Position numbers and translations under genes: made by a program. A DNA stretch of 18,942 nucleotides, taken from UHGV virus genome UHGV-0121731. One strand, 5' to 3'. This DNA is from a virus. Shown piece after piece: positions 1-18,942 of this stretch. Positions within the stretch are counted from its first letter, which is position 1, and each line of letters opens with the position of its first letter. The notes under the pieces are model-generated. The model saw only the letters and a list, made by a program, of their open reading frames with translations, was not told the DNA's origin and made no database searches.

Positions 1-49
1 ATTAGTTAAATTACTCATATCGCTTCAATTGGCTCTAGTTAACTCTGGT

Positions 50-1045
50 TTATGGACGCATTATGGACATTCCTGACACCGGGTTAAGAGTCACAGCATC
101 TTGTAAGAAATCCGGTGCAAAGTGTGCGTAGGTCATAGTTTGCTGAATGTTAGAATGACCCAGGATGCGCTGCAATGTGATTATGTTACCTCCATTCATT
201 ATAAAATGTGTGGCAAATGTATGCCTCAAAACATGTACTGCTTGTCCGTCAGGTAAATCGGGTTTTACTTCCCTGAGAGCGTTACGCACTTTGTAGTAAC
301 TGGCATTAAAAAGCCTGCCTGAATTTTTGGTCTTGATCCGTTTAATCAGGTCCTGCGAAACGGGAATTGTCCTGCGTTTTCCGTTTTTAGTTTTCATAAA
401 CGTAACCATCTGGTTAATGATGTGTTCAGCTTTTAAATTAGACACTTCACTCCAGCGTCCACCAGTAGAAAGGCAGACCAGAGTTGCATTTAATTCATCA
501 CCATCAAGCACGGATAACAGCCGCGTAATCTCTTCACTGGACAAAAAAGCCATTTCCGTAACAGCTTCACGTAACCGTTTAATCTCACGGAACGGGTTGT
601 GAGAGTGGTATTCACCGGCGTCAATTAACTTGGTGAACATCCCGCTCATTATTGCCAGATGTCGATTTACGCTGGCTGGTTTCAGACCATCGTTCATCAT
701 TACAACGCGATAATCAGTTATCGTTTTCTTTGTTAGCTGGTCAGCTCTGGACACTCCCATTTCTGCAAATTTGGCGATTATTGTCGTTAAACGCCCCCGT
801 TCAATATCTCCACGCTCATGTGATTTTCCGTGATATATCCACCATCTGCCTAACAACTCTGTAAGAGTTCGGCGGTCGGCTGGTTTCTCCAACCACTCTT
901 TGTTGTGGTAGTTAACCAGGACATGACGTTCGAATGCTTGAGCTTCACCTTTAGTTTTAAATTTCCGCCTGATACGTTTTCCATCTGCACCCTGCGGTCT
1001 GACGTCCACTTCATAACGACCATCATCGAGCTTTTTAATAGACAT
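50..1045 (-). CDS. int: Tyrosine integrase, P2 Int family (331 aa)
   Basis: Full-length ORF with ATG at 1043-1045. Product begins MSIKKLDDGRYEVDVRPQG and has a C-terminal catalytic region (HVLRHTFATHF...LGHSNIQQTMTYAH) typical of phage tyrosine recombinases. It sits at the prophage end, divergent from the early operon, as in P2 lysogens. Confidence 0.9.
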   Translation of the reverse strand: MSIKKLDDGRYEVDVRPQGADGKRIRRKFKTKGEAQAFERHVLVNYHNKEWLEKPADRRTLTELLGRWWIYHGKSHERGDIERGRLTTIIAKFAEMGVSRADQLTKKTITDYRVVMMNDGLKPASVNRHLAIMSGMFTKLIDAGEYHSHNPFREIKRLREAVTEMAFLSSEEITRLLSVLDGDELNATLVCLSTGGRWSEVSNLKAEHIINQMVTFMKTKNGKRRTIPVSQDLIKRIKTKNSGRLFNASYYKVRNALREVKPDLPDGQAVHVLRHTFATHFIMNGGNIITLQRILGHSNIQQTMTYAHFAPDFLQDAVTLNPVSGMSIMRP

Positions 1046-1138
1046 AAAGCCCTCCGATGACGCTGTTTACTTCTACTACTTGAAAATTAATGCAATTTTC
1101 TTTCGTACATTTACTACACACATATGCTGAATAAATCG

Positions 1139-1438
1139 TCAGCCAGTCTTCTGGTCTGAGTGGTGCAAGGTTGTTGAGTCTTGCCCAATGTGTGCGAGAG
1201 CCGGGGCTATTTGTCCAGCTGCTGGATCTGTTTCATCAAACATGAACCAGTCACGATACTTGCGAAAGCGTGGATGCTTAAACAGCTTCATACCTGCTTC
1301 CATAGGCATTTTTGATTTTCCTGATTCATATCCATGATATGTGTAGTAATTAATTCCAATTAATTCAGCAAGTTCCTTAGTTTTAAGGCGTTCGGATTCA
1401 CGGATGAGCTTTAGTTTCTCACTTTGTTCACTTGACAT
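1139..1438 (-). CDS. C: Immunity repressor, P2 C-like (99 aa from the ATG at 1438; the ORF track extends to a TTG at 1456)
   Basis: Small ORF directly upstream of int on the same strand and divergent from the cox-like gene. The size from the internal ATG equals that of P2 C. The N-terminal helix-turn-helix-like segment is LKTKELAELIGINYYTYHGYESG. Confidence 0.65.
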   Translation of the reverse strand: MSSEQSEKLKLIRESERLKTKELAELIGINYYTYHGYESGKSKMPMEAGMKLFKHPRFRKYRDWFMFDETDPAAGQIAPALAHIGQDSTTLHHSDQKTG

Positions 1439-1531
1439 AATTTTGCTAATCTCCAATTATATTGTTACTTGGCAATTTGTGATTCGCTCAAAAAGGCTCT
1501 AGATGGCTCCAGTTGGTGAATCGCAAATCTT
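1439..1531. promoter_or_regulatory. Divergent early/repressor promoter-operator region (lysis-lysogeny switch) containing a tandem decamer GGCTCTAGAT-GGCTCCAGTT at 1495-1514
   Basis: Non-coding gap between the divergently transcribed C and cox-like genes. It holds two adjacent direct repeats of GGCTCYAGWT. A possible rightward promoter is TTTGTGA (about 1476-1482) with TAGATG (1500-1505), but exact promoter elements are not resolved. Confidence 0.45.
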
Positions 1532-1903
1532 ATGGAGGATAGCAAAGTGACGACAAATGTAGAAATTTCTTGTCCAACTAGCGATGAGGCAAGTTTCGAA
1601 AATGAAGCCAAACGTAAAAGCATTCAGATTTCAGAGCGCCCATCTGATTTGCTGTCGAAAGAAGGTTTTGCTCTTTACATCGGTAAGACACCACGCGCGG
1701 TGGCTGAAATGGCTAAAGCAGGAAAGCTGCCAGCCTTCTACATGACAGACCCATTAAAACCAAGAGGGAAAGCTGAATTATGGATTAATCGCCGTGAGTG
1801 GGACAAGTACGCAGCCCAGCTAGTTGATGAAGCTCCGACAGAATGGCATGACTGGAAAAATCGCATTAGTTACAGCAAATCAAGACATGGCCGTGCGGCT
1901 TAA
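1532..1903 (+). CDS. cox: Cox-like excisionase/early-promoter regulator; true start uncertain (ATG 1532, GTG 1547 or TTG 1649)
   Basis: First gene of the rightward early operon, opposite the repressor. The segment ALYIGKTPRAVAEMAKAGKLPAFYMTDP resembles the winged-helix DNA-binding core of P2 Cox/186 Apl-type proteins. The 123-aa ORF is longer than P2 Cox (91 aa), so an internal start is plausible. Confidence 0.55.
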   Translation: MEDSKVTTNVEISCPTSDEASFENEAKRKSIQISERPSDLLSKEGFALYIGKTPRAVAEMAKAGKLPAFYMTDPLKPRGKAELWINRREWDKYAAQLVDEAPTEWHDWKNRISYSKSRHGRAA

Positions 1904-6625: not shown

Positions 6626-7189
6626 GTGTCTATCGAACAGTCAGGAAATACCGTAACAAATGGCAACATAATTTCTGGTGATCAGACTAATCATATATTC
6701 AATTATCCTGTTAAAGGAACTAACAGGGAGATACAGAAACTTTATGAGTGTTTGAAGAGAGGTGATATAGGGGAAGCGGTTCCGGGGTTTTGTGCTGAAC
6801 TAGAGCATTATATGTCCCTTCAGCCTGATATTGATGTTCGGGGGTTAGACGCTAAATTACTCGAGAGTAATAGAAAAGATTTGTTGTTTTTAGCTAAGCA
6901 GATGAAGGAAAAAGCGACAAAAGCTATAATGCGTCGCCAGACGTCAAAAACTGCACAAAGAATATTTGTAATAATTTTAGATCAAATTCATTTTGATTTT
7001 ATAACGAAAGTAACACCACTTATAGAAGCGGATAGCTCCAGAGTGATTGTTGATGAGAAAATCGCTTCAATAATTGATGAATTATATTCGTCTTTGGGAG
7101 AAAACTTGCTAGAGCTAACAGCAAAAGATCTCTTGGGATTACTATTTTTTCTGGGTGGCAATTGCCATATAAGGTGGGATAAATGCTAA
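6626..7189 (+). CDS. Hypothetical protein (187 aa): N-terminal GNTVTNGNIISGDQ repeat and a helical C-terminal domain
   Basis: GTG start preceded by AGAGGTG. Its N-terminus repeats the C-terminal peptide motif of the upstream small ORF. Stop overlaps the next start (ATG at 7183). Confidence 0.55.
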   Translation: MSIEQSGNTVTNGNIISGDQTNHIFNYPVKGTNREIQKLYECLKRGDIGEAVPGFCAELEHYMSLQPDIDVRGLDAKLLESNRKDLLFLAKQMKEKATKAIMRRQTSKTAQRIFVIILDQIHFDFITKVTPLIEADSSRVIVDEKIASIIDELYSSLGENLLELTAKDLLGLLFFLGGNCHIRWDKC

Positions 7190-7683
7190 TTTACCATCCA
7201 GCATATGATGCATATCATTGTTTATTCAGAATGATTGCTCTTATAGACCATGTAAATGAAATTGAGGTAGATAAGGCCAGGATTTTGGACTTCTATCTGC
7301 TATTTCCTGCTTTGGTATCTGAAATTAGAATGCCTCATAATTATTCTTCAATGAAGAAAGAAGCGAAGAAGTATTCTAATATATATCGGGATCCTATTAA
7401 TGTTACATCTACATTCAGAGATATGTATGAAATTCAAATGGCAGCAATAAGATGTCTTGCAGCTACTGGGTTGGTTGAGATGGATTGTCTTGAGAAAAAC
7501 ATTATAAAGAGAACAGATAAGTCTGTTCCAGATGGCTTATTACTTTCTATTAATAATTTTATTAATACGAATAAAACTATTAATACATTTATCATAGACA
7601 CACTATCTAAATTCCATTTGGTTGGAAAAGATGGTTTAAAAGATAGAACGAAGTTAATGGAGTTTAGATATGACTATTCTTAA
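7183..7683 (+). CDS. Hypothetical small helical protein (166 aa); possible middle-component-like partner of the ATPase
   Basis: Overlaps both neighbours (translational coupling). No catalytic motif is recognisable by eye. Confidence 0.55.
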   Translation: MLIYHPAYDAYHCLFRMIALIDHVNEIEVDKARILDFYLLFPALVSEIRMPHNYSSMKKEAKKYSNIYRDPINVTSTFRDMYEIQMAAIRCLAATGLVEMDCLEKNIIKRTDKSVPDGLLLSINNFINTNKTINTFIIDTLSKFHLVGKDGLKDRTKLMEFRYDYS

Positions 7684-9607
7684 TCCATCTTTTTTTGTTA
7701 GTAAATTAAAAGTTTTCCAAGCTGGGCATGAAGCCTTTAGCTGTGTTTTCCATAAAGGGGTAAATGTAATAAGGGGGCGAAATAGCTCTGGCAAAACTAC
7801 TGTTATGGATCTTTTAGCATTTTCACTTGGTGCTGAAAATATTAGCTTGAAACCAACAGCTCTTTTATGTTCATTTACCATGGTTGAAGTGCTTTTGAAT
7901 AATAATCTTGCCTGTTTTAAGCGGGAGATAAGTTCAGAATCCATGCGACCGTTGAGTATTTTTTGGGGCTCGATGGATAAAGCTCTTAACTCATCACCGA
8001 GTCAGTGGCAAACTTATCCTTTTAAGCGTTCAGAAAAATCACTGAGTTTTTCTCAGGTAATTTTAAATGCTTTAGATATGCCTCTAGCTCAAGGAGAGGG
8101 TGCTTCAATTTTAACAATGCATCAAATCCTACGTGTATTATATGCAGATCAGCCATCTCTTCATAGTCCTATATTTAGGAACGATAATTTTGATAGAGCT
8201 CTAACACGAGAGACTATTGGTGATTATTTATGTGGTATATTTGATGACAAACTTTATAGCTCTTTGATTAGGCTTAAACAGGTTGATTCTGAACTTTCGA
8301 CAAAAATTGTTGAGCTGAAAAGCATATTTAAAGTTCTTGGACGCTCTGGGCAATCGCAGCATGTAAGTTTTATTGACGATAAAATAAAAGAGCTAAGAGA
8401 GAAGAAAGAAAAGATCAATGGCGAGCTTATCTCTCTCAAAGAGAGTAATAACTCTTCTGTTAATGATAAAAATGCTGATAAAACTAAAACTAACAACCTT
8501 CGAAAAAAATTAAATAAAGCGAAGGAAGAAGAAGTAAAAAATATTGATAGTATCCATATGTTAGAAATGGAGATAGCTGACTCTGAAATGTTCATTAATG
8601 AGTTAGAATCCAGATTGCGCTCTCTTAATGAATCAAGTATTGCCAGAGACTATTTTAGCAACGTTAAATTTCAATTTTGTCCCAGTTGTTTAAGTGAGTT
8701 GAATATTTCCTCTGAAAATGAGTGCTCATTATGTAAAAATCACGCGCCAGAGGGTAGTGATGCTCCTCAATTATTAAGGATGAAAAATGAGATTTCTATC
8801 CAATTAAAAGAATCCAGAGATCTTCTTGAGCATAATTATGTAAAACTGAGAGAGCTTAAGAGCCAATCTCCTGCTTTAAAGCAAAAAGTGCGAGATTTAA
8901 TTCGTGAATATGAAGAAGTCTCTAAGGTTTGGGAAAATGCCTATGAAATAGAGTTTGAAACTCTTACTAAGGCTCTGGGACGTGTTGAAGAAGAAATTAA
9001 ACAGGCTTGTGAATTACAAAAACTTAGTGATGTAATATCTGATTTGCAAAAAGAACGTGATAGTCTGCAGTTAGAGAAGGAGAGATTGTCCTCTTTAATT
9101 GAATCTTTGGAGAGTAAAGAGGAATATAGGAAGAAGGATATTTCTAAAACTATAGAAAAAATTATGAAAAGACTTCTTAAAAAAGATCTTCCATTGCAGA
9201 CTGAATTTATTGATCCCAGAAAAGTTAATTTTAGCTTTGCCGATAATACTGTTTATGTAAATGGGGCTAAGTATTTTTCAGAAAGTTCAGCAGTTGTATT
9301 AAGACATCTCTTTCATTTAGCATTGTTAACTGCAAGCATTGAAAAAAAATACATGAGATTACCTCGTTTCCTAATGCTTGATGGAATTGACGATGGTGGA
9401 ATGGAGAAAGAGCGCAGTCACAATCTGCAGAAAATAATAGTACAAGAAACTCAATCGTATCAATATGATTTTCAAATAATTTATGCGACATCGGAGATTA
9501 ATCCAGAATATGAAAATACCGATTTGATTGTTGGTCGGTATTTTAATCCAGATGATAAATCATTAAAGATAAATTATACCGCTCTTGATAAAGATTTATT
9601 GAACTAA
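7670..9607 (+). CDS. SMC/Rad50-like ABC ATPase (645 aa) with split head, long K/E-rich coiled coil and central CxxC-x14-CxxC hook
   Basis: Walker A GRNSSGKTT at residues 36-44 (nt 7775-7801). Central Cys pairs CPSC...CSLC at nt 8678-8734. K/E-rich heptad-like region across roughly residues 200-520. C-terminal Walker B-like FLMLDGIDDGG (about nt 9371-9400) followed by ERSH. No Toprim or other nuclease domain is appended. Confidence 0.75.
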   Translation: MTILNPSFFVSKLKVFQAGHEAFSCVFHKGVNVIRGRNSSGKTTVMDLLAFSLGAENISLKPTALLCSFTMVEVLLNNNLACFKREISSESMRPLSIFWGSMDKALNSSPSQWQTYPFKRSEKSLSFSQVILNALDMPLAQGEGASILTMHQILRVLYADQPSLHSPIFRNDNFDRALTRETIGDYLCGIFDDKLYSSLIRLKQVDSELSTKIVELKSIFKVLGRSGQSQHVSFIDDKIKELREKKEKINGELISLKESNNSSVNDKNADKTKTNNLRKKLNKAKEEEVKNIDSIHMLEMEIADSEMFINELESRLRSLNESSIARDYFSNVKFQFCPSCLSELNISSENECSLCKNHAPEGSDAPQLLRMKNEISIQLKESRDLLEHNYVKLRELKSQSPALKQKVRDLIREYEEVSKVWENAYEIEFETLTKALGRVEEEIKQACELQKLSDVISDLQKERDSLQLEKERLSSLIESLESKEEYRKKDISKTIEKIMKRLLKKDLPLQTEFIDPRKVNFSFADNTVYVNGAKYFSESSAVVLRHLFHLALLTASIEKKYMRLPRFLMLDGIDDGGMEKERSHNLQKIIVQETQSYQYDFQIIYATSEINPEYENTDLIVGRYFNPDDKSLKINYTALDKDLLN

Positions 9608-11235: not shown

Positions 11236-11664
11236 CGGTGTGTGACCGGACTGATTGAATCGCTGTCACCGTCAGGGCGTCGGCGACTGAGCGCCGAACT
11301 GGCGAAACGTCTGCGTCAGAGTCAGCAGCGTCGGGTGATGGCACAGAAAGCCCCGGACGGCACACCCTACGCGCCACGCCAGCAGCAGAGCGCCAGAAAA
11401 AAGACTGGTCGTGTTAAGCGAAAAATGTTTGCGAAACTTATCACCAGTCGTTTTTTGCATATCCGCGCCAGCCCGGAACAGGCATCAATGGAATTTTACG
11501 GCGGGAAGTCGCCGAAAATCGCCAGTGTGCATCAGTTCGGTCTGTCGGAAGAAACCCGGAAAGACGGTAAGAAAATTGATTATCCGGCGCGTCCTCTGCT
11601 CGGCTTTACCGGTGAGGATGTGCAGATGATTGAAGAGATTATCCTGGCTCACCTCGACCGTTAG
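11236..11664 (+). pseudogene. S: Tail completion protein (P2 gpS family) lacking its start and first residues
   Basis: Frame reading ...LSPSGRRRLSAELAKRLRQSQQRRVMAQKAPDGTPYAPRQ... to a stop at 11664 resembles gpS-type proteins. No start codon or ribosome-binding site is present, and it abuts the terminase remnant on the other strand. Confidence 0.65.
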
Positions 11665-14227: not shown

Positions 14228-15408
14228 CAGTGAAATACTACGCCATTCTGACTAATCAGGGCGCAGCACGGCTGGCTAACGCGACGATGCTCGGCAGTAA
14301 GCTGAATCTGACGCAAATGGCCGTTGGTGATGCGAATGGTGTCTTGCCGACACCAGACCCGGCACAGATAAAACTGATTAACCAGAAACGCATCGCGCCG
14401 CTGAATCTTCTGAGTGTTGACCCGAACAACCAGAGTCAGATTATTGCGGAGCAAATCATCCCTGAGAACGAGGGCGGATTCTGGATCCGTGAGATTGGGC
14501 TTTATGATGATGAAGGCGTACTCATTGCGGTGGCGAACTGCCCGGAAACGTACAAACCGCAGTTGCAGGAAGGCAGTGGTCGTACCCAGACTATCCGCAT
14601 GATTCTGGTTGTCACGAATACCGAAGCTATCACGCTGAAAATCGACCCGTCGGTGGTACTGGCGACCCGTAAATATGTGGATGATGAAGTCCTGGAATTA
14701 AGGCTGTATGTGGATGACCAGATGAGCAAACACATTGCCGCACAGGACCCTCATACCCAGTATGCACAGAAACATAATCCGACATTTACCGGAGAACCAA
14801 AAGCACCGACGCCTGCCGCAGGAAATAACACCACGCGGATTGCGACCACTGCGTTTGTACAGGCCGCTATTACCGCTCTGATTAACGGTGCGCCTGACAC
14901 GCTGGACACACTGAAAGAAATTGCCGCGGCCATTAACAATGACCCGAAATTCAGCACCACCATTAACAATGCGCTGGCAGGTAAACAACCGCTGGACAAT
15001 ACGCTGACTCATTTGAGTGGAAAGGATGTTGCCGGTCTTCTCGCATACCTTGGTTTGGGAGAAGCGGCGAAAAGGGATGTGGGCACAGGAGATAATCAGA
15101 TACCGGATATGGGAGCATTCGCTTCTGGTTCGGGATGGTTCAGGCTACCAGGTGGATATATTGTTCAGTTTGGCACTTTTGCAGGAAACACGACCCGCTT
15201 TATCAGTGGACACTTCCCTATACCATTCCCTAATCAGCCGATGGTTTCAGTCAGTGTTATGTCTGATGCCGTTCAGTCAGACCCGTCGATTCCTGCCCCG
15301 CAGGTTTTGTCTGTAAATTTTGAACATATCAGTAATTCAGCGTGGCGTGTGGCAACCAGTGATATCTCACAGCAATACAGATTCAGTTATATTTCGATAG
15401 GACGGTAG
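14224..15408 (+). CDS. H: Tail fibre protein (394 aa): constant N-terminal part (to about nt 15050) fused to the currently expressed variable C-terminal segment
   Basis: The N-terminus MTVKYYAILTNQGAARLANATMLGSKLNLTQMAVGDANG is the conserved tail-fibre N-domain of P2 H-type proteins. The invertase crossover site lies inside the ORF at 15038-15063. Confidence 0.85.
   Translation: MTVKYYAILTNQGAARLANATMLGSKLNLTQMAVGDANGVLPTPDPAQIKLINQKRIAPLNLLSVDPNNQSQIIAEQIIPENEGGFWIREIGLYDDEGVLIAVANCPETYKPQLQEGSGRTQTIRMILVVTNTEAITLKIDPSVVLATRKYVDDEVLELRLYVDDQMSKHIAAQDPHTQYAQKHNPTFTGEPKAPTPAAGNNTTRIATTAFVQAAITALINGAPDTLDTLKEIAAAINNDPKFSTTINNALAGKQPLDNTLTHLSGKDVAGLLAYLGLGEAAKRDVGTGDNQIPDMGAFASGSGWFRLPGGYIVQFGTFAGNTTRFISGHFPIPFPNQPMVSVSVMSDAVQSDPSIPAPQVLSVNFEHISNSAWRVATSDISQQYRFSYISIGR
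15038..15063. other. Left crossover site of the invertible segment (26 bp, TTCTCGCATACCTTGGTTTGGGAGAA)
   Basis: Imperfect dyad with the Hin/Gin-family site shape. Its right 14 bp (TTGGTTTGGGAGAA) are identical to the reverse complement of the site at 16914-16939. It encodes the LGLGE join in the fibre protein. Confidence 0.65.
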
Positions 15409-15410
15409 AA

Positions 15411-15851
15411 ATGCAGAAATATATTTTCAGTGCCGATAAAAATGCGTTTTTCCCTGTGGAGCTTAAAATCGCTTATCAGGAATCCGGCGAATGGCCCGAT
15501 GATGGAATCGAAATTGACGACACTGTTGCTGCCGAATTTATGAAGGAAGCACCAGAAGGAAAATACAGAGGTGTCATCGACGGAATGCCTGCATGGATTG
15601 ATATTCCACCGCCAACTCATGAGGAACAAATTGCCGCAGCCGAACTGAAAAAGCAGCAATTGATTAATCAGGTCAACGAATACATAAACAGTAAGCAATG
15701 GCCTGGTAAAGCGGCGATTGGTCGCCTGAAAGGTGAGGAACTGGTGCAATATAATTTGTGGCTGGATTATCTGGACGCACTGGAACTGGTCGATACTTCC
15801 GGTGCGCCAGATATTGAATGGCCTACGCCTCCGGCAGTTCAGGCCAGATGA
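15411..15851 (+). CDS. Tail fibre assembly chaperone for the current orientation (146 aa)
   Basis: Immediately follows the fibre gene. C-terminus LWLDYLDALELVDTSGAPDIEWP is the conserved tail-fibre-assembly C-terminal motif. Confidence 0.8.
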   Translation: MQKYIFSADKNAFFPVELKIAYQESGEWPDDGIEIDDTVAAEFMKEAPEGKYRGVIDGMPAWIDIPPPTHEEQIAAAELKKQQLINQVNEYINSKQWPGKAAIGRLKGEELVQYNLWLDYLDALELVDTSGAPDIEWPTPPAVQAR

Positions 15852-16425
15852 CATCAGGCGCGGTGCTGGTATCTGTTGCCTCCACCGCGTCAATGTAATC
15901 CAGCACAGCGTTAAGTCGGGTGGTTTCTGCCTGCGTCAGCTTCCGCCCGGCCCGTAATTTCATCTGAATCAGACTGATGGAAGCCATTGCAGCATCAATC
16001 AGCGACTGGCGCTTTGCTTCTGCCGCGTCTAGTGCGGCGCTATGCTGTGCCTCGGTATCCGTCACCCATTTCTCACCATCCCATTTATCGAATGGCGTTA
16101 ACGGGGCGATAGTGGTTGTATTTTCAGGGTAATCACCCGGAGCTGTGATTTCTTTCGATTCTCCTGTTTCGGTGCTATAGATGATTTCACCGCGATGGTC
16201 TGGTACATATTCCCATGAGTTAAAATCTGCAGAACGGCAGATTGCATAACCAGCTTTATGTGTAACTGGTGCATCTAAACAAGAACATGCCGGGATACCG
16301 ACGCCAACGGCAAGATATTCTGTTGATGATGAAATGTATTCCCGTGTCGTGTTGTCATAGTTATAGACGGTAATATCACCCGCTACTGTGGCAATAAATT
16401 CACTGTTTAATTTTGCCTGTGTCAT
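15823..16425 (-). CDS. Alternative tail fibre assembly chaperone (200 aa), convergent partner inside the invertible segment
   Basis: C-terminus LNAVLDYIDAVEATDTSTAPDVIWPELP shares the same chaperone motif. Its start overlaps the stop of the alternative fibre segment (TAATG). Confidence 0.8.
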   Translation of the reverse strand: MTQAKLNSEFIATVAGDITVYNYDNTTREYISSSTEYLAVGVGIPACSCLDAPVTHKAGYAICRSADFNSWEYVPDHRGEIIYSTETGESKEITAPGDYPENTTTIAPLTPFDKWDGEKWVTDTEAQHSAALDAAEAKRQSLIDAAMASISLIQMKLRAGRKLTQAETTRLNAVLDYIDAVEATDTSTAPDVIWPELPEA

Positions 16426-16926
16426 TATGCAGCCCTCACGATGTAGTTAAATGCAATGTTGCGCGGGCGGGTTTCAGTGCCAATATTCGCTGCATTGTCA
16501 GAAGCAACCCCACGAGTGCTGACAGCTCTTACTGCTGAAGGTAGGCTTTGAGGCTCCCGGTCAGTATAGGCAATCCCCCCATCCCCTCCAGTTGCTAGCG
16601 GAGCATAACTCCCGGCCTGACCAATAGTTGACGATGTTGTATTTGAACCTGTCCAGATCTGCTGGTTATGTGAGTGGTCTCTGAGTGAATGGCCTTGAGA
16701 TGAAAGCAGCGCACGCCCGTTGTCGATACCACGACTATCATCCCATCCACGAATAAACTCACCGCGTAAATCAGGTAATTTATTTGTTGGATAAGCCTTT
16801 GCCAGTTCCGGGTATTCTTCAGCAGAAAATGCCGCACCGTTGCATTTCAGCCAGCCTGTTGGCGGTGTGGCTGAAGGCCATGGAACAGGCACCCCAACAG
16901 GTAATGCTGAGCCTTCTCCCAAACCA
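16425..16926 (-). CDS. Alternative, currently silent tail-fibre C-terminal segment (tail-collar type); expressed only after inversion fuses it to the constant part of H
   Basis: The minus-strand frame crosses the right crossover site and continues ...GLGEGSALPVGVPVPWPSATPPTGWLKCNGAAFSAEEYPELAKAYP..LPDLRGEFIRGWDD, a classic tail-collar fibre motif. It has no promoter or start of its own; the ORF-track Met at 16967 lies outside the segment. Confidence 0.75.
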
Positions 16927-16939
16927 ACGTTTATGAAAA
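16914..16939. other. Right crossover site of the invertible segment (TTCTCCCAAACCAACGTTTATGAAAA)
   Basis: Reverse complement TTTTCATAAACGTTGGTTTGGGAGAA shares its right half exactly with the left site. It lies about 50 bp upstream of the invertase gene. Confidence 0.65.
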
Positions 16940-16988: not shown

Positions 16989-17588
16989 ATGCTCATGTTT
17001 ATTGGCTATGTACGCGTATCAACAAATGACCAGAACACGGAATTGCAGCGTAACGCGCTGGAATGCGCGGGATGTGAGCGGATTTTTGAGGACAAAATCA
17101 GCGGCACGAAGTCCGACAGGCCGGGACTGAAAAAACTGCTCAGGACATTATCGGAGGGGGATACACTGGTAGTCTGGAAGCTGGACCGGCTGGGGCGTAG
17201 TATGCGGCATCTGGTCATTCTGGTTGAGGAACTGCGCGAACGTGGCATTAATTTTCGCAGCCTGACGGATGCTATTGATACCAGCACGCCGATGGGGCGT
17301 TTTTTCTTTCATGTGATGGGTGCCCTGGCTGAAATGGAACGAGAACTCATTGTCGAGCGGACTCGGGCCGGGCTGGAAGCGGCCAGAGCCAAAGGTCGTA
17401 TTGGTGGCAGACGTCCTAAACTCACCACGAGTGAGTGGGAGCAGGCCGGGCGTTTGCTGGCTGCAGGGGAGTCACGTCAACGCGTGGCACTGATTTTTGA
17501 TATTGGTCTGTCCACGCTCTATAAAAAATTTCCCTCATCAGCGACAAAGAATAAATTGTGTCATCCCTTAGCCAACCGGGACAAATAG
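16989..17588 (+). CDS. Serine DNA invertase, Gin/Hin/Pin/Cin family (199 aa; alternative ATG at 16995)
   Basis: MLMFIGYVRVSTNDQNTELQRNALECAGCERIFEDKISGTKSDRPGLKKLL...GRIGGRRPKLT is near-identical in pattern to Gin/Pin, with catalytic Ser in the VRVSTNDQ motif and a C-terminal helix-turn-helix. Confidence 0.9.
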   Translation: MLMFIGYVRVSTNDQNTELQRNALECAGCERIFEDKISGTKSDRPGLKKLLRTLSEGDTLVVWKLDRLGRSMRHLVILVEELRERGINFRSLTDAIDTSTPMGRFFFHVMGALAEMERELIVERTRAGLEAARAKGRIGGRRPKLTTSEWEQAGRLLAAGESRQRVALIFDIGLSTLYKKFPSSATKNKLCHPLANRDK

Positions 17589-17647
17589 CCTGACATCTCC
17601 GGCACAACTGAAAATATCACTCACCCATTAACCACGGAGTTAAACGG

Positions 17648-18028
17648 ATGAGTGACTATCATCACGGCGTGCAGGTGCTGGAGATTAACGACGGCACCCG
17701 CGTCATTTCCACCGTATCCACTGCCATTGTCGGCATGGTCTGCACGGCCAGCGATGCGGATGCGGAAACCTTCCCCCTCAATAAACCGGTGCTGATTACC
17801 AATGTGCAGAGTGCAATTGCAAAGGCTGGTAAAAAAGGCACGCTGGCGGCGTCGTTGCAGGCCATCGCTGACCAGTCAAAACCGGTCACCGTTGTCGTGC
17901 GTGTGGAAGACGGCACCGGCGAAGACGAGGAAACGAAACTTGCGCAGACCGTTTCCAATATCATCGGCACCACCGACGAAAACGGCCAGTACACCGGACT
18001 GAAAGCCCTGCTGGCGGCGGAGTCGGTA
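17648..18028 (+). pseudogene. FI: Tail sheath protein (P2 gpFI family), N-terminal ~127 codons only
   Basis: [31 protein letters not shown]... matches the gpFI N-terminus as I remember it, but the frame stops after 146 codons; a full sheath is about 396 aa. Resemblance is lost after ...LLAAESV at about 18028. Confidence 0.7.
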
Positions 18029-18029
18029 A

Positions 18030-18179
18030 GACACCGAGTCGAAAATCTCCGTGGTCTGCACCTATTTCCGGTTGACGATGGACGGTAAGGAGCTGGTCGA
18101 AATCGACACCATCAACATGATTGAGAAGGTGAACGGCGTCGACCGGCTGGAGCAACACCGCCGCAATATCGGCCTGTGA
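18030..18179 (+). pseudogene. FII: Tail tube protein (P2 gpFII family), C-terminal ~49 codons only
   Basis: A different frame reads [49 protein letters not shown] to a stop at 18177-18179, about 56 bp upstream of E, which is where the tube gene ends in P2. There is no start codon. Identity rests on position and on recollection of the tube C-terminus. Confidence 0.5.
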
Positions 18180-18235
18180 TTTTCATACGGTCAGCCAGGC
18201 TGACCGGTTAACCCTGATTCAGAAGTGAGAAAACC

Positions 18236-18511
18236 ATGAACAAAGAAAATGTCATTACCCTGGAAAATCCGGTCAAACGTGGTGAGCAGGTTATCGAACA
18301 GGTCACGCTGATGAAACCCAGTGCCGGGACGCTGCGCGGTGTCAGTCTGGCTGCGGTTGCAAACTCCGAAGTCGATGCACTGATTAAGGTACTGCCGCGC
18401 ATGACGGCACCGATGCTGACCGAGCAGGAGGTCGCCGCGCTGGAACTGCCTGACCTTGTGGCGCTGGCCGGTAAGGTGGTCGGTTTTTTGTCGCCGAACT
18501 CGGTGCAGTGA
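18236..18511 (+). CDS. E: Tail assembly chaperone, P2 gpE family (91 aa)
   Basis: Same size as P2 E, with the slippery heptamer near its 3' end and the tape-measure start overlapping downstream. Confidence 0.85.
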   Translation: MNKENVITLENPVKRGEQVIEQVTLMKPSAGTLRGVSLAAVANSEVDALIKVLPRMTAPMLTEQEVAALELPDLVALAGKVVGFLSPNSVQ

Positions 18512-18663
18512 CGTTTCCGAAAAATCTGTCGGTCGATGACCTGATGGCGGATGTGGCAGTGATATTTCACTGGCCGCCATCAGAACTGTATCCCATGAGC
18601 CTGACCGAACTCATCACATGGCGCGAAAAGGCGCTCCGGCGAAGCGGAAACACGAATGAGTAA
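18236..18663 (+). CDS. E+E' frameshift fusion product (tail chaperone extension)
   Basis: Joining the E frame to the -1 frame at 18484-18490 gives a continuous product ending at TAA 18661-18663, which overlaps the tape-measure ATG at 18656 as in P2. Confidence 0.6.
18484..18490 (+). promoter_or_regulatory. Programmed -1 ribosomal frameshift site T_TTT_TTG producing E+E'
   Basis: A canonical X_XXY_YYZ heptamer in the E frame. The -1 frame is open from here to 18663 and reads VAELGAVTFPKNLSVDDLMADVAVIFHWPPSELYPMSLTELITWREKALRRSGNTNE. Confidence 0.7.
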
Positions 18664-18892
18664 CAATGTAAAATTACAGGTATTGCTCAGGGCTGTTGAC
18701 CAGGCATCCCGCCCATTTAAATCCATCCGTACAGCGAGTAAGTCGCTGTCGGGGGATAAGCGCGTCATAGACGAGCAGGACTGGACAATCACTAAGGTGA
18801 CACATTTTCTGAATAATAGCGGCTTCACGACGTCCCTGGAGCTTGAGGTCAGGCTTTCTGATGTGGAGTACGAAACAGAAGATGATGAGTGA
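18656..18892 (+). pseudogene. In-frame fusion remnant: tape-measure (gpT) N-terminal ~34 codons joined to the gpD C-terminal ~44 codons
   Basis: MSNNVKLQVLLRAVDQASRPFKSIRTASKSLSGD has the gpT start character, but the ORF is only 78 aa; a tape measure is over 800 aa. The tail ...WTITKVTHFLNNSGFTTSLELEVRLSDVEYETEDDE is followed by AT-rich non-coding DNA as expected after the last tail gene D. The D assignment is from memory and position. Confidence 0.55.
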
Positions 18893-18942
18893 TGTATTTA
18901 TTTTATCTGTTTGTTTTATAAGGATAAATTAACTAAAATGGC

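Follow-up and report, generated by a model that had tools for sequence, protein, structure and literature searches.

Prophage decay by multiple internal deletions is an accepted route to defectiveness (reviewed in PMC6379469), and the 'ogr-D′' remnant of Escherichia coli K-12 and the P2*B prophage of E. coli B are both on record among P2-like remnants (PMC3032704). In these two elements (the former ogrK / yegZ, at the cyaR-yegQ site), as in the one described here, the 3' end of gene D and the ogr gene survive beside attR. Our element differs from both in its site (pflA/pflB), in an integrase gene with about 66-70% nucleotide identity to P2 int, in the larger amount of phage DNA kept (about 19 kb) and in the partner of D, which is fused in frame to the start of T here and joined to host or other DNA there. 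Further multiply deleted remnants, EC3 (and OZ547541) and NCTC9100, carry independent in-frame deletions from the 5' part of T into D (products of 121 and 207 aa); they differ from ours in leaving T at codon 52 and entering D at codons 319 and 233, respectively, in lying at the yegQ site and in their other accompanying deletions. The prophage of strain Z142-6 (NZ_CP159689) shares with our element the pflA/pflB site, the integrase, the immunity and replication genes and an ABC-3C cargo, with 98.6% identity over the first 11,250 positions. It differs in being intact (about 32 kb), with P through S, FI, FII, T, U and D all complete, and in having a different fibre region and no invertase.

The stretch of DNA analysed here (UHGV virus genome UHGV-0121731, 18,942 nucleotides, hereafter the window) is a defective P2-like (Peduovirus) prophage of E. 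coli inserted between pflA and pflB. It aligns with P2 (AF063097, BLASTN) as collinear blocks of 94-98% identity that follow the P2 gene order (int-C-cox-B-A ... cos-Q-P ... V-W-J-I-H-G ... FI-FII-E-T-U-D-ogr), and it also matches other Peduovirus phages and prophages. The collinearity is broken at three places, each mapped against P2 (Table 1), so that the three separate deletions proposed by a first-pass annotation of this DNA are borne out. Deletion 1 removed 7.4 kb of head, lysis and tail-completion genes; across all three, most of P together with O, N, M, L, X, Y, K, lysA-C and R is gone, FI has lost its C-terminus and FII its N-terminus, and T and U are absent along with most of D. Because the deletions took virion genes, the element is unable to make capsids or tails. 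On contigs identical to the window, the host flanks are pflA upstream and pflB-focA-ycaO-ycaP-serC-aroA after ogr, with a chromosomal flank 99.9% identical to E. coli.

The left end is the part least like P2. The integrase gene (50-1045, minus strand), the repressor and cox, all within window positions 1-1903, have about 66-70% nucleotide identity to P2 where they align, and this region is a 98.6% match to the Z142-6 prophage. Immunity and integration type differ from those of P2, the target being the pflA/pflB intergenic site. We considered whether the window could be P2*B, the defective prophage already known from E. coli B, and rejected this, because the site is pflA/pflB and not cyaR/yegQ; that identity is also countered by a junction found in no complete RefSeq E. 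coli genome. The element is another case of the known decay of P2 remnants, with a junction not seen in complete genomes.

Table 1 Features of the F operon, the chimeric reading frame and the three deletion junctions in the window.
Feature	Position	Strand	Details
Deletion junction 1	11243	.	P2 1501 (inside P) joined to P2 8946 (S codon about 10)
Late promoter pF, Ogr activator site and transcription start	17551..17624	+	homology to P2 17555-17628
FI' sheath fragment	17648..18088	+	N-terminal 127 codons, then FII sequence out of frame
Deletion junction 2	18028/18029	.	P2 18033 (FI) joined to P2 19222 (FII), 'AA' microhomology
gpE tail assembly chaperone gene	18236..18511	+	intact; PF10109, E = 2e-12
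Slippery site and E' -1 frame extension	18484..18663	+	TTTTTTG at 18484-18490, extension to 18663; overlaps T' start
Chimeric T'-'D ORF	18656..18892	+	ATG at 18656, TGA at 18890-18892, 78 aa
gpT 5' remnant	18656..18758	+	codons 1-34 plus opening bases of codon 35
gpD 3' remnant	18757..18892	+	codons 344-387 and stop
Deletion junction 3	18757..18758	.	2-bp 'TA' microhomology common to T and D parents
ogr promoter region	18893..18942	+	P2 -35 at about 18911-18913, -10 at about 18934-18940

The third deletion produced the reading frame on which we focus. The first-pass annotation had read this 78-aa ORF as roughly 34 residues of a gpT start followed by roughly 44 residues of a gpD end, and alignment to P2 T and D makes the split exact: residues 1-34 are gpT 1-34 of P2 (34/34 identical) and residues 35-78 are gpD 344-387 (44/44 identical), the opposite of the missing gpD similarity that would have spoken against a fusion. 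At the nucleotide level, window 18028..18758 corresponds to P2 19222..19952 (97.9% identity, BLASTN) and window 18757..18942 to P2 23819..24004 (97.3%), the match in T stopping at P2 19952 and restarting in D at P2 23819. The T side of the junction is GGGGGATA|TCC and the D side GGCTT|TAAGCG; base by base, T is followed through ...GTCGGGGGATA and D from TAAGCGCGTC.... A tblastn search of 50,697 phage records with the 78-aa chimera recovered annotated gpD / tail protein genes over residues 31-78 (E = 6e-24). The deletion cost 3,868 bp of P2, in line with the earlier estimate of about 4 kb for the tape measure gene, U and most of D: T codons 35-815, the whole of U and D codons 1-343 are absent, leaving 34 of 815 gpT residues (4%) and 44 of 387 gpD residues (11%).

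The join is in frame, as had been claimed, with a single reading that runs through to D's own stop. P2 T and D lie in different frames, one apart, and 3,868 equals 1 mod 3, so the two remnants fall into register. The ORF also sits where a tape measure gene is expected: its first 8 nt are also the last 8 nt of the E+E' frameshift ORF (18508..18663), and P2 has the same overlap (E+E' 19430..19857, T from 19850). In the two NCBI draft genomes carrying the junction (window 18746-18892 = L014 11099-11245 = L017 1818-1964), the annotation has, where the 78-aa ORF would be, an ORF of 48 aa and, separately, a GpE' fragment of 39 aa; pipelines therefore disagree on the chimera, calling it as 78 aa or 48 aa.

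Signals on either side of the chimera have been kept: pF and the E/E' slippery site are intact, and so are the start context and ogr. The pF region is identical to P2 from window position 17568 on and retains the TTGTG left half-site, and the P2 counterparts of the frameshift element are a site at 19685 and an E+E' end at 19857. A consensus scan returned a terminator-like hairpin at window 18463-18490 (GCTGGCCGGTAAGGTGGTCGGT followed by TTTTTTG); it is no terminator but the E/E' -1 frameshift site, with its stem-loop and slippery stretch. Junction 2, in the same operon as the chimera, is out of frame; its product is a 146-aa ORF holding sheath FI codons 1-127, which still scores as Gp18_domIII_N. 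Beyond the D stop, the DNA that had been described as AT-rich and non-coding is indeed non-coding and yet far from featureless, as the ogr promoter lies there: window 18893..18942 is 94% identical to P2 23955..24004, the P2 stretch with the annotated ogr -35 and -10. The ogr start falls about 32 nt past the window end, and on a contig identical to the window (L004) ogr follows, with a 72-aa product identical to P2 Ogr. Window 18757-18942 and this contig together thus hold a D 3' fragment, an intact ogr and then pflB, the arrangement of an 'ogr-D′'-type remnant.

Of the two parent proteins, little that defines a family remains. The 78-aa chimera matched no Pfam family at E <= 0.01 and has no precomputed Pfam entry, while its neighbours match as expected. 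The domain of the gpT family (PF10145, PhageMin_Tail, a full-length alpha-helical ruler) is found in the T product of intact relatives (L020); with only residues 1-34 of 815 left, the chimera gave no Pfam match to it, and with only residues 344-387 of 387 left, the gpD domain (PF05954, Phage_GPD) was likewise not detected. In any functional sense, then, the chimera is no member of the tape-measure or Phage_GPD families, the defining domains being absent.

Our data suggest that the 78-aa ORF is very probably a neutral scar of prophage decay by illegitimate recombination. The anatomy of the fusion, its junction, its identity to P2, its clonal spread and the absence of domain matches form the observed basis of this reading. 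A single RecA-independent, microhomology-mediated event would have brought T codon 34/35 up against D codon 343/344 at the shared 'TA', at the cost of 3,868 bp (the whole of U and the larger part of both the tape measure gene and D), and the remnants would then be read through as T(1-34)-D(344-387) to D's stop. Two more deletions took out the genes for head, lysis and tail completion and left the sheath and tube genes joined out of frame. The peptide itself is predicted to be made only if the Ogr-dependent pF fires, coupled to E/E' translation; pF needs Ogr and so should be silent in the lysogen, and any peptide that is made is presumably non-functional. Nothing we found contradicts the neutral scar directly, although the endpoints of the deletion are recurrently used breakpoints and not random positions, which implies that some feature of the local sequence or structure biases where joining takes place. 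On its own the finding matters little: it adds one more deletion allele and explains a 78-aa hypothetical ORF.

The same chimera recurs in independent data. The exact 78-aa protein is present on at least 24 contigs from independent ENA and Logan assemblies, and a look-up of the junction-2 protein adds the NCBI drafts GCA_012702095.1 and GCA_016665465.1. Compared with the window over up to 11.3 kb, the copies show 99.99-100% identity, and carrier contigs reach 323 kb, with normal chromosome on either side. Such near-identity of independent copies indicates a young clone and no assembly artefact. Every contig of sufficient length has all three junctions together; exact look-ups of three junction-specific proteins found no intermediate with one or two deletions, and complete genomes and GTDB representatives likewise held none. 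The comparison with related strains by which the first-pass annotation had hoped to order the events could thus be made, and it yielded no order because all carriers have all three deletions. Its proposal of a progressive reduction of the prophage is plausible, and other P2-like remnants have differing sets of multiple deletions; the further idea that the deletions selectively spared the regulatory, cargo and fibre modules would be a supposition drawn from what is left. The three exact junctions provide a clonal marker for a lineage of E. coli that occurs in metagenomes of the human gut.

Two other explanations of the chimera bear on whether it is real and whether it is used. The third junction could in principle be an assembly or chimeric-contig artefact, and the sole point in favour of this is that none of the 5,426 complete RefSeq E. 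coli genomes, and no GTDB species representative, has it in one piece; against this, the identical junction occurs on the contigs noted above from independent samples and assemblers, the two NCBI drafts included, and we consider the chance of an artefact negligible. Alternatively, the fusion might be a selected small protein, interfering for example with tail assembly of a superinfecting P2-like phage, or its frame might have been kept to protect downstream ogr expression. Three independent T-to-D deletions, with products of 78, 121 and 207 aa, are all in frame, and the D 3' end with ogr survives in most remnants, as this explanation would lead one to expect. When comparable deletions are ascertained in complete genomes at the DNA level, the picture is less uniform: EC3/OZ547541 (T 20009 to D 23743, 121 aa) and NCTC9100 (T 20005 to D 23487, 207 aa) are in frame, but the deletion in strain H2 (E 19603 to D 23804) is out of frame. 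With the window included, three of four are in frame, a result with P(>=3/4) = 0.11 at a one-in-three chance, so that selection for an in-frame fusion is not supported and the frame of junction 3 is consistent with chance. Frame is in any case irrelevant to ogr, because a separate ogr promoter lies beyond the D stop. The lack of any domain match, the small number of gpT and gpD residues left and the fusion of the D C-terminus to unrelated or antisense partners elsewhere also argue against a selected product. Conservation is uninformative among near-clonal carriers, and the two single-residue variants of the peptide (V9L and E78D) give no hint of constraint. Taken together, a selected function seems very unlikely, and the neutral scar remains the reading we prefer.

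How the deletion arose is a separate matter. At each of the 22 junctions that could be mapped, in our element and in other remnants like it, the microhomology is 0-7 nt long, with imperfect matches reaching 15 nt. Such overlaps are the mark of illegitimate, microhomology-mediated joining, and in this the junctions of the window resemble spontaneous microhomology deletions in general. Several of the endpoints are shared as well. Both endpoints of junction 3, and the right endpoint of deletion 1 in S, have been used by many independent deletions with different partners. A look-up of the truncated gpS left by deletion 1 (S' ORF 11242-11664, 140 aa) returned five different left partners (loci L020-L028), at P2 1501, 3368, 3992, 6457 and 8393, all joined at P2 8940-8948 (..GACCGGCTG|ACCGGACTG..), a set in which an exact-protein look-up selects one specific start codon and so inflates endpoint reuse. 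In one of these loci (L020) only gene R has been lost, and the prophage is otherwise intact-looking.

A protein search with the 78-aa chimera recovered about 50 short ORFs that begin with an N-terminal partner and end in the C-terminus of gpD; these partners include T, Cox, A, FI, holin, O, U, V, E, R, orf82, orf91 and antisense P or Q. Among 36 distinct events of this X'-'D kind, D was entered at A319 in 15, at T327 in 5, at K339 in 3 and at K343/344 in 7 (the window among them), a clustering reached in none of 200,000 uniform simulations; ORFs with a gpT N-terminus leave T at residue 34 (3 of 13 events) or 52 (5 of 13). Most of these reuse events come from exact-protein or protein-similarity look-ups of called ORFs and are biased towards in-frame joins. 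DNA in independent assemblies confirms three cases (A42 to D 23818 in L030, cox to D 23819 in L031 and T 19956 to U 22672 in L032). A further junction of strain H2, outside the retrieval, joins 8378-84 to FII and uses the site GCCGATA|TCCGG, which L020 (to S) and P0012 (to D) use too. In P2 (L001) coordinates, the reused endpoints lie in D at 23743-23748, 23767-23769, 23803-23805 and 23817-23820, in T at 19951-19956 and 20005-20009 and downstream of lysB at 8378-8384. Left endpoints typically follow ...GATA or ...GTAT, and the T34 and lysB-proximal sites, both quasi-palindromes, share the 9-mer GATATCCGG. We regard these endpoint hotspots as likely real.

These observations raise the question of what directed the break, if anything did. 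One candidate would be an enzyme of the element itself, either its serine invertase acting at quasi-crossover sites or gpA acting at a pseudo-origin. The 2-bp overlaps at junctions 2 and 3 are as long as the stagger of a serine recombinase, and the invertase is active in this lineage, where both orientations of segment 15050-16930 occur; yet all six parental endpoints match the element's crossover site TTCTCGCATACCTTGGTTTGGGAGAA at 11-12 of 26 positions, which is background (mean 11.6, 95th percentile 14), and most other remnants with the same hotspots carry no invertase. A deletion by a Cin/Pin/Gin-type invertase was rejected because the endpoints resemble the 26-bp site no more than background does. 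For gpA, the A319 hotspot in D (GCGGAGTTCTCT) resembles TCGGAGTCCTGT beside the annotated ori nick, but the match is offset from that nick, it is one of 27 sites with <=3 mismatches where 19.9 are expected by chance, other hotspots lack such similarity and A319 is not the site of junction 3; rolling-circle nicking by gpA at a pseudo-origin was accordingly rejected as a resemblance at chance level. We regard either enzyme as an extremely improbable author of the deletions. The P2 attP core, XerCD dif arms, RuvC, gyrase, cos and the type I-E PAM were also compared with the endpoints, by eye and as consensus sequences, and none was convincing. A different possibility is that the deletion was directed by break- or join-prone sites, any two of which can be joined, junction 3 being a combination of the T34 site (GGGGGATA|TCCGG, a GATATC quasi-palindrome) with the D343/344 site (GGCTT|TAAGCG). 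This explanation concerns the origin of the deletion and is compatible with a neutral scar. The clustering of D-side joins, the recurrent exits from T, the three DNA-level cases, the bystander junction in H2 and the five left partners that meet in S all point towards it. So does the placement of several endpoints in loops or at the bases of small hairpins predicted by single-strand folding; only the D region folds better than shuffled sequences (z = -2.5, the other regions not being significant), a weak score that leaves this placement suggestive and not evidence. Weighing on the other side are the ORF bias of the look-ups, the rarity of S'-type breaks in complete genomes (no S-start break among the 60 matches listed in an unbiased survey) and the failure to find an enzyme or motif, invertase quasi-sites and gpA pseudo-origins both standing at background. 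On balance, direction by hotspots is quite possible, if short of probable.

Whatever its cause, a more general proposal follows the same lines. We suggest tentatively, and as something that may well not hold, that the decay of P2-like prophages is non-random, with a few sites (T codon 34, D codon 343/344, D A319, T327, K339, T codon 52, S codon 10 and a position downstream of lysB) reused as endpoints in many combinations and in independent lineages. A limited search of the literature turned up no description of such reuse of few endpoints with many partners in P2-like prophages. If decay is indeed non-random, sequence- or structure-directed breakage and joining, possibly at small GATATC / CCGG quasi-palindromes and TpA steps, would shape which remnants persist. 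If the hint of endpoint reuse holds, domestication would be channelled in part by mutational hotspots and not by selection alone, and the 'ogr-D′'-type remnants of unrelated strains would be convergent products of the same break sites.

The other P2-like remnants recovered (L002, L003, L021-L024, L027-L029, L031-L034) lie mostly at the yegQ/ogrK site and have their own sets of deletions, the smallest consisting of int-C-cox'-'D-ogr (L031). At two hotspots they carry cargo that includes SIR2, DarT plus Macro, GmrSD plus HEPN, a Fic protein, methyltransferases, Mrr_cat and a NACHT protein. The locus between gpA and gpQ, beside cos, is a described defence hotspot of P2-like phages (bioRxiv 10.1101/2021.01.21.427644). 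In the window, cargo at 6626..9607, between gpA and cos/gpQ, is an ABC-three-component (ABC-3C) system composed of a CTD9 protein (187 aa), an MC5 protein (166 aa) and an ABC/AAA ATPase (645 aa); the same cargo occurs in the intact relative of strain Z142-6.

The tail-fibre segment at 15050-16930 lies in the opposite orientation in two copies of the element (L006 and L010) that are otherwise identical to the window. It is bounded by crossover sites at about 15038-15063 and 16913-16938 and followed by a serine invertase ORF (16989-17588), and its inversion exchanges the C-terminus of the fibre between a 394-aa Gp53-like_C form and a 442-aa Collar form. Since both orientations occur among the copies, the invertase has been active within the deleted lineage, in a prophage no longer able to build tails.
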